DNA of 64,000 nt from a virus (Duplodnaviria > Heunggongvirae > Uroviricota > Caudoviricetes), in IMG/VR virus record IMGVR_UViG_3300015615_000629, positions 1 to 64,000 of that record, one strand, 5' to 3'. Under the pieces are notes generated by a model. It made no database searches and was not told the DNA's origin. It was given only the letters and a program-made list of their open reading frames with translations. A program made the translations under genes and the position numbers. Shown here in pieces: positions 6,889-30,894 of this stretch; the stretch's first letter is position 1, and every line of letters starts with the position of its first letter.

Positions 6889-7059
6889 TTATTCAAAATG
6901 CAAGAACGGATGATCCTTGTCCAATACGTCATCCTCTGGACTGAATTCAAGAGTAGCCTTGAAAAACTCCTCCTCCGGAGTAAAAATTGTTACGTCCGAA
7001 TTCAACTGCGTATCAGACAGTTTCGTAAGTATCGTCAAAGCCAAGTCACGGTATGTCAT
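6889..7059 (-). CDS. 56-aa hypothetical protein (not in ORF track)
   Basis: GAGGA SD; MTYRDLAL...HPFLHFE; stop fused to motif 6881. Confidence 0.6.
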   Translation of the reverse strand: MTYRDLALTILTKLSDTQLNSDVTIFTPEEEFFKATLEFSPEDDVLDKDHPFLHFE

Positions 7060-7087
7060 TTATTTTATCCTCTTGCTTGTTCGTTAA

Positions 7088-7348
7088 TCACAGAATGGCT
7101 CCTGCCAGGGATTCCCGTAAGTGGAGGGCAATTCGTTCCAATGCTTTCTCCATGCCTGCCACATAAGCCATGATATAGGCTGTATAGAGCCTATCTGAGT
7201 TGGGAGAAATCAGCATGTCATCCCCAACCACATGCCAAACGCCCCCGCCAGATTCTAATTTCAAATCGCAGCCATAGGCCGTATTACACGCTTCGATTGC
7301 GTGGCGAGCCAACCGACGCTCTTCATCTTTGAAGGTGCAAAGAATCAT
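7088..7348 (-). CDS. hypothetical protein
   Basis: AAGGA SD. Confidence 0.65.
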   Translation of the reverse strand: MILCTFKDEERRLARHAIEACNTAYGCDLKLESGGGVWHVVGDDMLISPNSDRLYTAYIMAYVAGMEKALERIALHLRESLAGAIL

Positions 7349-7393
7349 ACTTTTAATTCCTTTGGAAGGAGTGTCTGGCCATTACGGTACAGA

Positions 7394-7639
7394 TTAAGAC
7401 AATGTTTTTGCCATTGCAATCAATTTGTTGCCGAATTCAATGGCTTTTTCAGGTGGAAGCCCAATCCATGTCGTAGGCATTCCAAAATCAATAATTACCT
7501 GCCTGCTCTGAGGGTCAACGCCCATTCGCACATTCAATTCGCCCTCGTCATCCGGAGATATCCTGCCATCTGGAAACTGTCCAGTTGGCCCCGGCTCAGA
7601 CTCGAAAAATTCTTTGAAACGCTCGCCTTCACCTGCCAT
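7394..7639 (-). CDS. conserved hypothetical protein
   Basis: GPTGQFPDG..DDEGEL..VIIDFG..WIGL pattern. Confidence 0.7.
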   Translation of the reverse strand: MAGEGERFKEFFESEPGPTGQFPDGRISPDDEGELNVRMGVDPQSRQVIIDFGMPTTWIGLPPEKAIEFGNKLIAMAKTLS

Positions 7640-7642
7640 GTA

Positions 7643-7846
7643 TCACCAATTAATGTATTCTCGCAACTGAGATTCGTCCACCCTTGCCCTCGTCACACCC
7701 TTAATGGTTTTAACTTTATCGTATTCCTTTTCTTGAATCTCCCTGAATTCGCCAAGAAAAGACCAACTGTAATACCCCTTGGGCTCCCGACCTAAAGCAC
7801 GCATGACTTTAGAACGGGCTCGGTGACTTTTAATGCGAATGAACAT
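7643..7846 (-). CDS. hypothetical protein
   Basis: Start moved to ATG 7846; the longer ORF runs through the tmRNA-like gene. Confidence 0.6.
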   Translation of the reverse strand: MFIRIKSHRARSKVMRALGREPKGYYSWSFLGEFREIQEKEYDKVKTIKGVTRARVDESQLREYINW

Positions 7847-7848
7847 AG

Positions 7849-7980
7849 TGGACACGCTGGGAATTGAACCCAGATCCGTCATAGTTGCAGATTTACCACA
7901 AAGTCTTTGTAAACGCATTTAACTTTGTTGGAATCCAATCCAGGCAATCTCTCGGCTATACGTCGATACCTTTCGTGCCC
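7849..7980 (-). ncRNA. ssrA: mini tmRNA-like RNA (132 nt)
   Basis: 5' GGGCACG-AAAGGTATCGAC, 3' CTGGGTTCAATTCCCAG-CGTGTCC-A; G3.U70 and A73 alanine identity; no D stem. Confidence 0.7.
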
Positions 7981-7999
7981 GTGTAAGTTATGGTACAGA

Positions 8000-8350
8000 T
8001 TACTCAGGGTCAGTATCGTAACCACCACAATTTTCAAGAAAATCTGCCAATGAACTTAGCCATTGCAGGAATTCTTTTGGCCCTTCTCCCCACCCGCCGT
8101 CTTCAATGACTTTAGTTAAAGTATCCGGAATATTGACAATAGCCGCACGAAGTTTCTGACTGCATTCTTTTGCAGCGTCAGAATCCATTACATAAGGAAT
8201 TCGTGGGTAATTGTAATCAAATTCCGCATGGCCCGTGTTTGAAAGCGGTAACTCAGCCTCACGAAAAACCAGCCCAAGAAGAATCCTGCCAGCAGAATTT
8301 ACGTCGAATTCTTCAATCTTTCTGTTGTTTGGGTAATAAGTTGTTCCCAT
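8000..8350 (-). CDS. hypothetical protein
   Basis: TGATG-coupled ORF. Confidence 0.7.
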   Translation of the reverse strand: MGTTYYPNNRKIEEFDVNSAGRILLGLVFREAELPLSNTGHAEFDYNYPRIPYVMDSDAAKECSQKLRAAIVNIPDTLTKVIEDGGWGEGPKEFLQWLSSLADFLENCGGYDTDPE

Positions 8351-8583
8351 CAGTCCACCCCAAACAATTCCCGAATCTTGGCCAACACCTTTTCCTTGTG
8401 TTCGGCCCGACTCAAGTTTTCGTCAATGTCCTGAATGTATTCGGCAAATTCCTTTTCATACCATTCGTAAAAGGTTTGCCGTTCAAGCACATCAAGAATC
8501 TTCTCAGCGTCCATTCGTGGCTTAGCCAAACGACGAGCCATCATTTCACACGCTTCTTGTTGTGTTAAAAGTGCGGTTTTCAT
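8350..8583 (-). CDS. hypothetical protein
   Basis: ATG 8583, 9 nt after motif 8593. Confidence 0.65.
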   Translation of the reverse strand: MKTALLTQQEACEMMARRLAKPRMDAEKILDVLERQTFYEWYEKEFAEYIQDIDENLSRAEHKEKVLAKIRELFGVD

Positions 8584-8900
8584 GCTTTCTCCGGTACAGA
8601 TAAAATTTCTTTCCAACCCTTATCCAAATCCTCAAACGTAACTAGCCAACGCTCTTTACGTTTGCCAGTTGAAAAGTCCGCTACGTCTTGTTGTGCTGTA
8701 AATCCATAAAGGTGAGCACAAGGCTTGCCAATATCAAGCCCTAATGCCGCTAACCCTTTACGAAATGTACCGAAGAGTTGACCCAACAAACAGTTACGCT
8801 CATCGTCCATGCGTAACTTATCTTTATTTATTTTGTCCCGCCAGCCAGGAACTTTATTATCTAAAAGTTCCCAGCCGGCAAGGATTCTTTGTTGAATCAT
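8580..8900 (-). CDS. conserved phage hypothetical protein
   Basis: LLD..PGWRDKIN...CLLGQLFG pattern. Confidence 0.7.
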   Translation of the reverse strand: MIQQRILAGWELLDNKVPGWRDKINKDKLRMDDERNCLLGQLFGTFRKGLAALGLDIGKPCAHLYGFTAQQDVADFSTGKRKERWLVTFEDLDKGWKEILSVPEKA

Positions 8901-8913
8901 ACTATTTTAAGGG

Positions 8914-9297
8914 ATGGAAACTTGCCCTATTTGTTTGAAGAAAACTAAAAATAGAACGCTGTGCCCATCCTGCCAAGTGAATTGCCGTCGCCGAGATATG
9001 AAAAAGAAACTTGTTGAATACAAGGGTGGAAAATGTGAGAAGTGCGGTTACGACAAATGTCTCGAAGCACTAACTTTTCACCATAGAAATCCTAAAGATA
9101 AGAGTTTCGTTATCTCTGGAAAACATTCCAAAAAACCTGCCATTCTATTTAATGAAGTGGACAAATGCGATTTACTTTGTCACAACTGCCACAACGAGGT
9201 TCACGCACAAGACCACGTGGAAAAATGGAAACGTTGGGATAATTATGTTGCCAATAAACCTCCTAAAATTAAAAAAGAGGTTATTGGAGCAAAGTAG
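8914..9297 (+). CDS. HNH endonuclease (free-standing homing type)
   Basis: GGKCEKCGY..LTFHH..P..K...KCDLLCHNCH motif. Confidence 0.85.
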   Translation: METCPICLKKTKNRTLCPSCQVNCRRRDMKKKLVEYKGGKCEKCGYDKCLEALTFHHRNPKDKSFVISGKHSKKPAILFNEVDKCDLLCHNCHNEVHAQDHVEKWKRWDNYVANKPPKIKKEVIGAK

Positions 9298-9368
9298 GAC
9301 ACCAGGGAATCGAACCCTATTCATCGCCCAGGATATAAGCCTAGCCACGATCCAACCGTCCGTGTCCC
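9295..9368 (-). tRNA. tRNA with UAU anticodon (Ile-AUA reader), atypical D arm
   Basis: GGGACAC/GTGTCCT acceptor, CTAGG-CTTATAT-CCTGG anticodon arm, TAGGG-TTCGATT-CCCTG T arm. Confidence 0.65.
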
Positions 9369-9374
9369 CTGGAA

Positions 9375-9686
9375 TCAAGCCGCCTCGGCTATTCTTTCTT
9401 CAAAGAATACCGGCCGCTCAACTGTTATGAGAGTTGTCGTCTTAAAAGAACAAGCACGACGCCCCACAAAAGTAATTACTACCGAATACGGACTGTATTG
9501 ATAGCATTCTCCCAACGCTTCCGCCATCAATCGGGCCGCCTTCAAAGCAGAAAACTTCTTCGGCCGACCACTCAAAATGCTCTTTGAACGATCTGCTACC
9601 GATTGATGAAACAAGGTGGTTCCCTTTACGAAACCATACCCCGGAACGTAATCGCCACTCTTCACTCGACAGGCTTCAACTTGCAT
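9375..9686 (-). CDS. hypothetical protein
   Basis: GGAG SD. Confidence 0.65.
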   Translation of the reverse strand: MQVEACRVKSGDYVPGYGFVKGTTLFHQSVADRSKSILSGRPKKFSALKAARLMAEALGECYQYSPYSVVITFVGRRACSFKTTTLITVERPVFFEERIAEAA

Positions 9687-27950: not shown

Positions 27951-28494
27951 AAGGGTGAATCTTTTTGTTTATTTTCACGGCGTTAAAAAACCGATTCCAA
28001 CCATCTTCAAAGGTTTCATGGTGGAAGCCTGAAAGGATTGAAGGCCAATCGGTTAGATTGTGGGATGTATAAGAGTCAGGAAAATCTCCATAACATTCGT
28101 CAACATAATCTTGGTCGGTTTTGACGGATTCGACAAGTTGGTTTGTCGGCACTTCTACGTAGCCGAATTTTTCGTTGCCGTATTCGTCGATATAGAATTG
28201 GATGTTCTTTTCTAGAATATCCTTCGTTTTAGCACAACATTCATCGTAGTGCCGAGTATTTTGGTTATTGTGGGTTGCCCAAAAATCATCAAGAAAATCT
28301 TCGATGTTTGGTTCCAATTCCCAGGCTTCGCCGTCGATAGCCATGTATTGAACCAAGGCACACTGAGCGGGCTTCGGCAATTCCTTAAACTTTAGGACTT
28401 TGCCTTTATTGGCGTCGATGATTTTGGAATTACGAGGGTGCGGCGTATAACTGCCACAATCGTTGTCGAATTGGCCAGGGTAGGTGGTTTTCAT
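27928..28494 (-). CDS. hypothetical protein
   Basis: ATG 9 nt after motif 28504. Confidence 0.7.
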   Translation of the reverse strand: MKTTYPGQFDNDCGSYTPHPRNSKIIDANKGKVLKFKELPKPAQCALVQYMAIDGEAWELEPNIEDFLDDFWATHNNQNTRHYDECCAKTKDILEKNIQFYIDEYGNEKFGYVEVPTNQLVESVKTDQDYVDECYGDFPDSYTSHNLTDWPSILSGFHHETFEDGWNRFFNAVKINKKIHPCVWFPHV

Positions 28495-28511
28495 GGTGTT
28501 TTCGGTACAGG

Positions 28512-28835
28512 TTAATGGTTGTAGAAAATATCCGCCGTCGCCAATTCGCCTAAGATATATTTCACAGTCTCGGTATCGCCATCATGTAACAGGTGTAGGC
28601 AAGCGAACACAATTCTTTGAATTGCATATTGTGTTTCAAACATGCGGCCGACGTTCTCCATTGCCGCGAACAGGTGTTCCATTGAATGATTTGCCCATTT
28701 ATCTAATTCTGACAGATAAAAGGCATCAGGAGCGGGGTTTTCTAGCCTTTCGGGTTTCATATTGAGGCTAGACATGGCGTGCATAATTTCGGATTGCAAA
28801 CCATAATACGGATTTTTATGTTCCATTGGTTTCAT
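28512..28835 (-). CDS. hypothetical protein
   Basis: ORF; start moved to MKPMEH. Confidence 0.6.
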   Translation of the reverse strand: MKPMEHKNPYYGLQSEIMHAMSSLNMKPERLENPAPDAFYLSELDKWANHSMEHLFAAMENVGRMFETQYAIQRIVFACLHLLHDGDTETVKYILGELATADIFYNH

Positions 28836-30801: not shown

Positions 30802-30894
30802 GGACCCCGACGGGACTCGAACCCGCATTACTTGTTTTTCACAAGCAACCCGAAGATTTAGAATCTTGGACCTTACCAATTAGGCTACGGGGTC
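30802..30894 (-). tRNA. amber suppressor tRNA (CUA) with long variable arm
   Basis: GACCCCG/CGGGGTC acceptor, D arm with GG, TT-CTA-AA loop, 9-bp variable stem, GCGGG-TTCGAGT-CCCGT T arm. Confidence 0.8.

Follow-up and report, generated by a model that had tools for sequence, protein, structure and literature searches.

The locus described here raises two questions, namely whether a phage RNA gene of only 132 nt that has the ends of a tmRNA is genuinely derived from tmRNA, and what such a short molecule could do in the infected cell. It is situated in the window, i.e. the whole stretch of DNA analyzed, which covers the initial 64 kb of a virus record of 572,167 bp that possesses direct terminal repeats and is rated complete.

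A tmRNA-derived gene without pseudoknots

Read on the minus strand from 7980 to 7849, the RNA, hereafter called mini-tmRNA, has the arrangement GGGCACG-A-AAGGUAUCGACG ... CUGGGUUCAAUUCCCAG-CGUGUCC-A, in which 87 nt separate AAGGUAUCGACG from the terminal CUGGG UUCAAUU CCCAG CGUGUCC A. The acceptor consists of 7 bp (G1-C72, G2-C71, G3.U70, C4-G69, A5-U68, C6-G67 and G7-C66) with the discriminator A; on the 3' side CUA follows directly after the discriminator, i.e. CCA is not encoded. The D-arm analogue contains GGUAUCGAC, and the model alignment identifies with high posterior probability the deformed D arm GGnnUCGAC, with neither a D stem nor an anticodon arm. The positions of all elements are compiled in Table 1.

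Table 1. Positions in the window of the mini-tmRNA, its sequence parts and the neighboring open reading frames
Feature	Position	Strand	Remarks and basis
Upstream ORF, 116 aa	8000..8350	(-)	stop 19 nt before G1 of the RNA; no Pfam family
mini-tmRNA gene	7849..7980	(-)	132 nt, G1 to discriminator A73; Rfam tmRNA, model R1, sequence reading
Acceptor stem, 5' strand GGGCACG, with G3 of G3:U70	7974..7980	(-)	7/7 pairs with 7850-7856
D-arm analogue AAAGGUAUCGACG, tmRNA-type GGnnUCGAC, no D stem	7961..7973	(-)	aligned to tmRNA consensus GGaUUCGACg
P2 connector helix, 5' strand (CGUAUAG ... AGAUU)	7946..7962	(-)	minimum-free-energy fold; partner 7877-7893 (CUAU-G-ACG, AAUCU)
Hairpin 1, UGGA-UUGGAU-UCCA, at the place of PK1 in full-length tmRNA	7929..7942	(-)	predicted fold only, no comparative support
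Hairpin 2, ACAAAGU / ACUUUGU, 17-nt loop UAAAUGCGUUUACAAAG	7898..7928	(-)	predicted folds
Candidate frame GCG UUU ACA AAG ACU UUG UGG UAA (AFTKTLW, stop)	7893..7916	(-)	coordinates confirmed
P2 connector helix, 3' strand (AAUCU ... CUAUGACG), then GGAU (consensus GGAC)	7877..7893	(-)	folds, family alignment
T arm CUGGG-UUCAAUU-CCCAG, GGUUCNANUCC-type loop	7857..7873	(-)	Rfam, R1, family alignment
Acceptor stem, 3' strand CGUGUCC (U70), and discriminator A73	7849..7856	(-)	sequence reading, pairing
Downstream ORF, 67 aa	7643..7846	(-)	AUG 7846-7844, 3 nt past the discriminator; no Pfam family

The Rfam model for tmRNA (RF00023) matches 7846-7980 of the minus strand end to end with 47.3 bits (gathering score 47, E 1.3e-15). 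This pass is marginal, 0.3 bits over the threshold, and only the tRNA-like domain and P2 contribute to the score. The pseudoknot ring (PK1 to PK4) is absent, 288 positions of the model being replaced by 53 nt. A second covariance model, R1, was built from 11 other mini-tmRNAs with the RNA at 7849-7980 excluded; it assigns 55.5 bits to this RNA (E about 4e-12, the E-values of R1 being rough) and only 19.6 and 17.6 bits to two true tRNAs of the window. The R1 match is confined to the tRNA-like domain plus the outer P2, a 72-nt interior being skipped. ARAGORN called only tRNAs and no tmRNA, both in the window and in the whole genome, and no second tmRNA match above noise was found in the complete 572-kb genome, i.e. 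the mini form is alone. The preliminary description had claimed a 132-nt mini-tmRNA with the alanine identity set G3:U70 plus A73 and a short segment in place of the pseudoknot ring, and all three claims were borne out by the sequence and the model scores; the programs it had named for a check disagreed, since Infernal with the Rfam tmRNA model passed narrowly and ARAGORN called none. The minus-strand stretch 7980-7849 is confirmed as a tmRNA-derived RNA gene without pseudoknots and without an AA tag.

What remains between the two halves of the tRNA-like domain is simple. The predicted P2 (CGUAUAG/CUAU-G-ACG, then AGAUU/AAUCU) encloses only two hairpins, and the fold of the whole molecule is modestly better than those of shuffles (z -2.3); the inner AGAUU/AAUCU helix of P2 is a prediction for this RNA alone. 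Hairpin 1 looks like a degenerate T arm, the T arms of the relatives' tmRNAs being its best local, though not significant, match. It also agrees with the mini-tmRNA's own T arm at 11 of 15 positions (CUGGAUUGGAUUCCA compared with CUGGGUUCAAUUCCC), which could be due to a degenerate internal copy or to coincidence. The loop of hairpin 2 contains AAUGC-N6-AAAGAC, common also to two other loci (L122 and L178). R1 failed to align the interior of the mini-tmRNA to the 'type A' interior of other mini-tmRNAs, hence the loop motif is treated as a lead and not as a finding. A pattern scan with the interior motif returned only L122 and one full-length tmRNA. For the 'type A' mini-tmRNAs themselves, a PK1-like pseudoknot (stem S1) was considered and dropped after inspection by hand, because the variable base of CUNG in A3 is uncompensated upstream.

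Neither a promoter-like nor a terminator-like site was found at 7500-8400, which makes it probable that the RNA is excised from a longer transcript. A tRNA-type 3' cleavage would leave the 67-aa ORF on a nearly leaderless mRNA (CU-AUG, window 7844-7849).

Likeness to tRNA-Ala and dependence on host proteins

A BLAST search of the mini-tmRNA against its own genome gave one notable match, in which positions 106-134 agree with the 3' end of tRNA-Ala(GGC) at 27 of 29 positions. This tRNA gene is situated outside the window at genome positions 114771-114842 (G000:C1), and the part of the window compared is 7847-7875. The T arm with the two preceding bases (AUCUGGGUUCAAUUCCCAG) is identical in both RNAs (19/19), and they also have in common the first four acceptor pairs including G3.U70, the discriminator A73 and the CU trailer, while acceptor pairs 5 and 7 show compensatory differences. 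The remaining phage tRNAs match the mini-tmRNA at 15 of 25 positions at most. The likeness points to an exchange of sequence between the two genes or to their joint selection, and the T arm may have been copied from, or may be shared with, the phage tRNA-Ala. In consequence, whatever charges and processes tRNA-Ala should accept the mini-tmRNA too.

The same likeness could be taken to mean that the RNA is not tmRNA-derived at all but a tRNA-like element descended from tRNA-Ala, for example a decoy for tRNA nucleases or a processing signal for the downstream mRNA. Besides the 27 of 29 identical positions at the 3' end, the AUG located 3 nt past the discriminator is in line with such an origin, because cleavage there would yield the nearly leaderless mRNA mentioned above. 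However, the 5' half has no D stem and displays the tmRNA-specific GGUAUCGACG as in the full-length tmRNAs of related phages, an anticodon arm is absent, and tmRNA is the model that is kept within the Rfam tRNA clan. Moreover, the acceptor stem of tmRNA generally resembles that of bacterial tRNA-Ala, as exemplified by the E. coli sequences. An origin from tRNA-Ala alone is regarded as very improbable.

The G3:U70 pair is completely conserved in tmRNA and represents the determinant for AlaRS, while SmpB binds the tRNA-like domain (PMC3985003). Neither SmpB nor AlaRS is encoded in the phage genome, and smpB is likewise absent from all six related records examined. Hence, charging and SmpB binding would have to make use of host proteins. 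The phage possesses an ORF resembling CCA-adding enzymes, and its tRNAs are also without an encoded CCA. Its genome contains 40 tRNA genes, including some with the CUA and UCA anticodons (window 30802-30894; G000:C1:286239-286310). It also encodes an RF1-like protein of 226 aa with PPT and GGQ motifs in which domain 1 is missing (G000:C1:88248-88928); an interpretation of this RF-1-domain match as an ArfB-type rescue factor was rejected, since the protein is RF1-like (PxT, GGQ) without domain 1.

Full-length relatives and the class of short tmRNAs

The large terminase of the phage (L215:586-2388, minus strand) has relatives with 50-56% identity on contigs of up to 634 kb, and many relatives are also present in IMG/VR. 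Six related huge-phage records (TerL 47-53% identical) are complete to at least 50%, and four of them contain full-length tmRNAs. These four records (G001, G002, G003 and G005) belong by terminase to the clade of the mini-tmRNA phage and are, like it, without a phage smpB. Their tmRNAs are 353-383 nt long, score 134-143 bits, and contain pseudoknots as well as tags that end in LAA or MAA, whereas the mini-tmRNA has 132 nt and 47 bits and neither of these features. According to ARAGORN, which finds the tmRNA in three of these four records, the tags read AENDLRLAA, GNTSGLRMVGDRPALRLAA and GTVNYAMAA; the tag of G002, read by eye, is DEVSYAMAA. The record G001 is classed as a provirus and its tmRNA could belong to flanking host DNA; the other three tmRNAs are situated inside linear phage records. 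GGUAUCGAC is common to the mini-tmRNA and the full-length tmRNAs of G002 and G003, and the CCACUA 3' end to the mini-tmRNA and those of G002 and G005. Since the terminase relatives carry full-length tmRNAs with AA-ending tags, the simplest reading is that the mini-tmRNA represents a reduced derivative of the full-length degron-tag tmRNAs of related huge phages. The interior shows no significant local alignment with the relatives' full-length tmRNAs (p 0.2-0.5), from which it follows that the reduction would not be recent and that the surviving segment cannot be named. A placement of the interior by MAFFT was dismissed as a clue to that segment for the same non-significant local alignment.

An identical copy of the mini-tmRNA was found in a strain from another sample (L311), which is 98.9% identical over the aligned flanks. 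These flanks contain 14 mismatches in 1278 bases, hence zero differences in 135 nt are expected 21% of the time, and the identity of the copies is no evidence of selection on the mini-tmRNA. In the collections searched, all other copies were identical and no divergent close relative was detected, nor were related loci found via the two flanking proteins. Among 5.8 billion proteins, the upstream 116-aa protein is matched only by identical copies, all of them belonging to its own phage species, and a BLAST search of window 7000-9500 against GenBank phages gave no match. Nearby, about 474 bp of the window (8901-9374) are replaced by about 88 bp in the other strain (L311:143-230); this segment holds a zinc-ribbon/HNH-like ORF (8914-9297, plus strand) and a tRNA-Ile(UAU) gene (9294-9368) and looks like a mobile cassette composed of a tRNA and an endonuclease-like gene.

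Comparative support for the structure came from exact-pattern scans, in which only the tRNA-like 5' motif, the T loop and a short gap were fixed and the 3' acceptor strand was left unspecified. They yielded seven stretches in IMG/VR, i.e. 2 with a gap of 70-100, 1 with a gap of 40-70 and 4 with a gap of 100-130, and in addition 56 stretches in metagenomes and 26 in GTDB genomes. A first, wide DNA pattern had been discarded, because its matches were mostly chance hits on tRNAs. Although the scans ignored the 3' strand, 35 distinct RNAs of 105-137 nt have 7/7 acceptor pairs and G3:U70. This census is a biased lower bound, because the alignment is model-fitted and the scans demand exact motifs; the invariance of GG and UCGACG in the family alignment is by design, as both were demanded by the scan pattern. 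Among the 47 distinct sequences aligned by means of the model, pairing is found in 93% of the cells, compared with 66% in column shuffles and 44-53% after displacement of the partners by 1-3 columns. Changes on both sides occur at 26 of 31 pairs. The acceptor reaches 99% pairing; its pairs 4-6 show compensatory changes, and the third pair is G:U in 44 of 47 sequences. Covariation across the family is also evident in the outer P2 helix (8/9 pairs changed on both sides), and the T stem is 100% paired. CGGA, in the region of the 3' strand of P2, is nearly invariant. The acceptor, outer P2 and T helices were also recovered by a MAFFT/RNAalifold run. Judged from this covariation, the mini-tmRNAs are a real, structured class, and the phage RNA is not a singleton.

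The viral contigs L122-L128 have the tRNA-like-domain frame in common with the mini-tmRNA, and forms of 68-81 nt that consist of the tRNA-like domain only adjoin tRNAs in viral contigs. Two such tmRNA-like RNAs, for example, are located directly upstream of tRNAs (L128:3084-3151 and L125:3031-3110); the former has G3:C70 and the discriminator U and may thus not accept alanine.

Given the full-length tmRNAs in the relatives, the mini-tmRNA might also be a decaying, functionless remnant of a full-length phage tmRNA after internal deletion. A similar deletion is known from the metagenome contig PPYE01046245.1 (100 kb; L150:6088-6222), in which an E. coli-type ssrA has its first PK1 stem fused to the UAAGCAUGUAG region, resulting in a 135-nt tmRNA with the tag gone, and selection on the phage copy is, as mentioned, not demonstrable. 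However, the determinants of the tRNA-like domain are all intact, the acceptor and T stems are without mismatch, the RNA exactly fills the intergenic gap, and the absence of residual similarity in the interior speaks against a recent deletion. In addition, reduced tmRNAs with strongly covarying helices are present in dozens of unrelated contigs from phages and metagenomes, which argues that the reduction is selected. Decay is consequently considered improbable.

Candidate tag frame, proposed function and known reduced tmRNAs

The preliminary description had pointed to an open frame encoding AFTKTLW behind a resume-like context, UUAAAU-GCG. Its coordinates (7916-7893) and the lack of an AA end are correct; the open frame as such, however, is not above chance, because a GCN-to-stop frame of 2-20 codons occurs in 91% of dinucleotide-preserving shuffles of the interior and one of at least 7 codons in 62%. 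A second frame, AWIGFQQS, starting at position 36, is equally open. The resume context fared better in part. UUAAAU|G at GCG resembles the contexts that precede the real tags of the relatives, CUUAACU|G in G002 and G003 and CCUAACU|G in G005, and U(-5)A(-4) stand ahead of GCG as do the conserved U85/A86 in E. coli tmRNA, where the nearly invariant A86 determines the frame (PMC2481249). The combination UUAANU|Gnn plus a closed frame was found in 3.6% of the shuffles and a looser pattern in 18%, but both patterns were picked post hoc.

Hence, one alternative to be weighed is a working, minimal, pseudoknot-free tmRNA of 132 nt, in which hairpin 1 would stand in for PK1 and which would resume translation at GCG (7916), add A-AFTKTLW and stop at UAA (7893), again without a degron. 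[quoted passage not shown] However, besides the chance frequency of the frame and the post hoc choice of the pattern, ARAGORN detects neither tmRNA nor tag, and in the predicted fold the frame crosses the 3' strand of the 7-bp hairpin 2, while its UAA shares bases with the inner P2 helix and is separated from the tRNA-like domain by only about 14 nt. The interior is not significantly similar to the relatives' tag region, and the other copies, all identical, lend the frame no support from codon-wise conservation. Furthermore, the comparison of 41 mini-tmRNAs revealed no common peptide; 10 of them are without a GCN-to-stop frame, and in several members of the best-defined subgroup the frame from the conserved GCC continues, by our own reading, into the tRNA-like domain without a stop. 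It is therefore doubtful that the AFTKTLW frame is genuinely used as a tag, and the minimal working tmRNA as a whole likewise appears unlikely, albeit clearly less so than decay or an origin from tRNA-Ala.

On balance, we favor the view that the phage encodes a miniature degron-less tmRNA, reduced from a longer ancestor, that diverts host ribosome rescue or titrates SmpB. According to this proposal the mini-tmRNA would be released from a longer transcript in the same way as the phage tRNAs, its 5' end being cut by RNase P and its 3' end being trimmed and completed with CCA. It would then be charged with alanine by the host AlaRS, bound by the host SmpB and EF-Tu, and could enter stalled ribosomes. 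Because the mini-tmRNA cannot add an ssrA-type degron, the net effect would be that ribosome rescue is diverted or SmpB titrated, and proteins from stalled ribosomes in the infected cell would escape marking for ClpXP-type degradation. The products of stalled ribosomes would carry no ssrA-type degron under either reading, whether the RNA acts as a competitor or its short frame is used. Two features of the interior count against this proposal. Its 72-85 nt are much more than a pure decoy needs, as exemplified by the about 20 nt in the RNA of phage DS6A, and the resume-like context with the closed frame speaks against diversion and fits the minimal working tmRNA discussed above.

The closest published case comes from Mycobacterium phage DS6A, whose unannotated tmRNA (tmRNA Website ID 11587) is TLD-only, i.e. 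CDS-less (Hudson et al. 2014, PMC4131195; PMC11915505). A similar TLD-only molecule is reported to inhibit tmRNA strongly in E. coli, perhaps via SmpB titration (PMC4131195 citing Mao et al. 2009; PMC11915505). R1 locates the DS6A tmRNA at 28478-28560 with 41.1 bits, and its CUCCACUA end is the same as in the mini-tmRNA. Both RNAs are phage-borne and unannotated, and both have a 7-bp acceptor with G3:U70, the GGnnUCGAC motif, a GGAC-type junction, a T arm and a 3' end without encoded CCA (CUCCACUA / GUCCACUA); an AA degron tag is present in neither. They differ between the P2 strands, where DS6A has about 20 nt and the mini-tmRNA 72-85 nt with the inner helix and two hairpins, and in the resume-like context with a closed 7-codon frame, which is a feature of the mini-tmRNA. 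The phage lineages also differ, with genomes of 60 kb for DS6A and 572 kb for the phage studied here. With two hairpins and a closed 7-codon frame in an interior of this length, the mini-tmRNA is thus an intermediate form and not TLD-only. The inferences of the preliminary description, i.e. rescue without a mark for ClpXP and sequestration of SmpB, would agree with the published TLD-only tmRNA (PMC4131195, PMC11915505), and by this analogy the better-supported variant appears to be that the mini-tmRNA competes with the tmRNA of the host for SmpB and stalled ribosomes, which has also been suggested for the RNA of DS6A. Its third suggestion, sequestration of AlaRS, found no specific support.

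Reduced tmRNAs have also been reported from cells and organelles. For the WWE3 genome RBG_19FT_COMBO_53_11 it has been noted in the 2025 tmRNA database that the tmRNA 'may lack' a tag frame (PMC11915505). The tmRNAs of CPR bacteria (WWE3, Saccharibacteria, Patescibacteria) comprise 133-136 nt and thus belong to the size class of the mini-tmRNA, with which they share the frame of tRNA-like domain plus P2; their 5' end GGGGUAGAAAGGUGUCGACG is also close to GGGCACGAAAGGUAUCGACG of the mini-tmRNA. In contrast to the phage RNA, they reside in cellular genomes and are presumably the cell's own tmRNA, their interior consists of a large-loop hairpin followed by a small one, and R1, which aligns part of their interior but none of that of the mini-tmRNA, gives them 68-77 bits. 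In these CPR tmRNAs of 133-136 nt a frame recurs that starts at position 30 and ends in a hairpin loop, e.g. AAPGDSQPSKLPQKAES and ATPGENQPSKLPQKVAS (L149:355-487, L154:8301-8433, L158, L161, L130 and L144, and from GTDB L188, L202, L204 and L210); its stop positions vary and it overlaps helices. CDS-less tmRNAs are furthermore known from jakobid and oomycete mitochondria and from Mallomonadaceae plastids (PMC3985003, PMC11915505). Like the mini-tmRNA, they have kept the tRNA-like domain and lost the tag frame and the pseudoknots; however, they are often permuted or in two pieces, measure about 65 nt in plastids, and are thought to serve the organelle's own rescue and not interference with a host.

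Full-length tmRNAs are known in huge phages, where they were found by ARAGORN (Al-Shayeb et al. 2020, PMC7162821; Bacillus phage G, PMC12484599), and a full-text literature search for reduced tmRNAs gave no paper on intermediate phage forms. New is the intermediate size of the mini-tmRNA and its occurrence as a reduced counterpart of full-length tmRNAs within one phage clade. Since such surveys used ARAGORN, which misses the mini form, the tmRNA repertoire of phages is undercounted and its reduced members have remained unannotated.

Collectively, one terminase clade extends from full-length tmRNAs with degron tags to a degron-less form of 132 nt and represents a natural experiment on the parts of tmRNA that a phage needs. 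If the short frame were used, it would mark a lower size limit for a template of trans-translation and uncouple ribosome rescue from proteolysis. If, instead, SmpB titration or competition for stalled ribosomes holds true, the mini-tmRNA would be a phage countermeasure to the tagging and proteolysis of incomplete proteins by the host. Such a countermeasure would be relevant in view of the suppressor tRNAs for amber and opal codons that the phage possesses as well; we speculate that read-through by these suppressors to the ends of mRNAs would otherwise expose phage proteins to tagging, and a benefit of blocked tagging for the phage is our conjecture on what its reduced tmRNA may be for.
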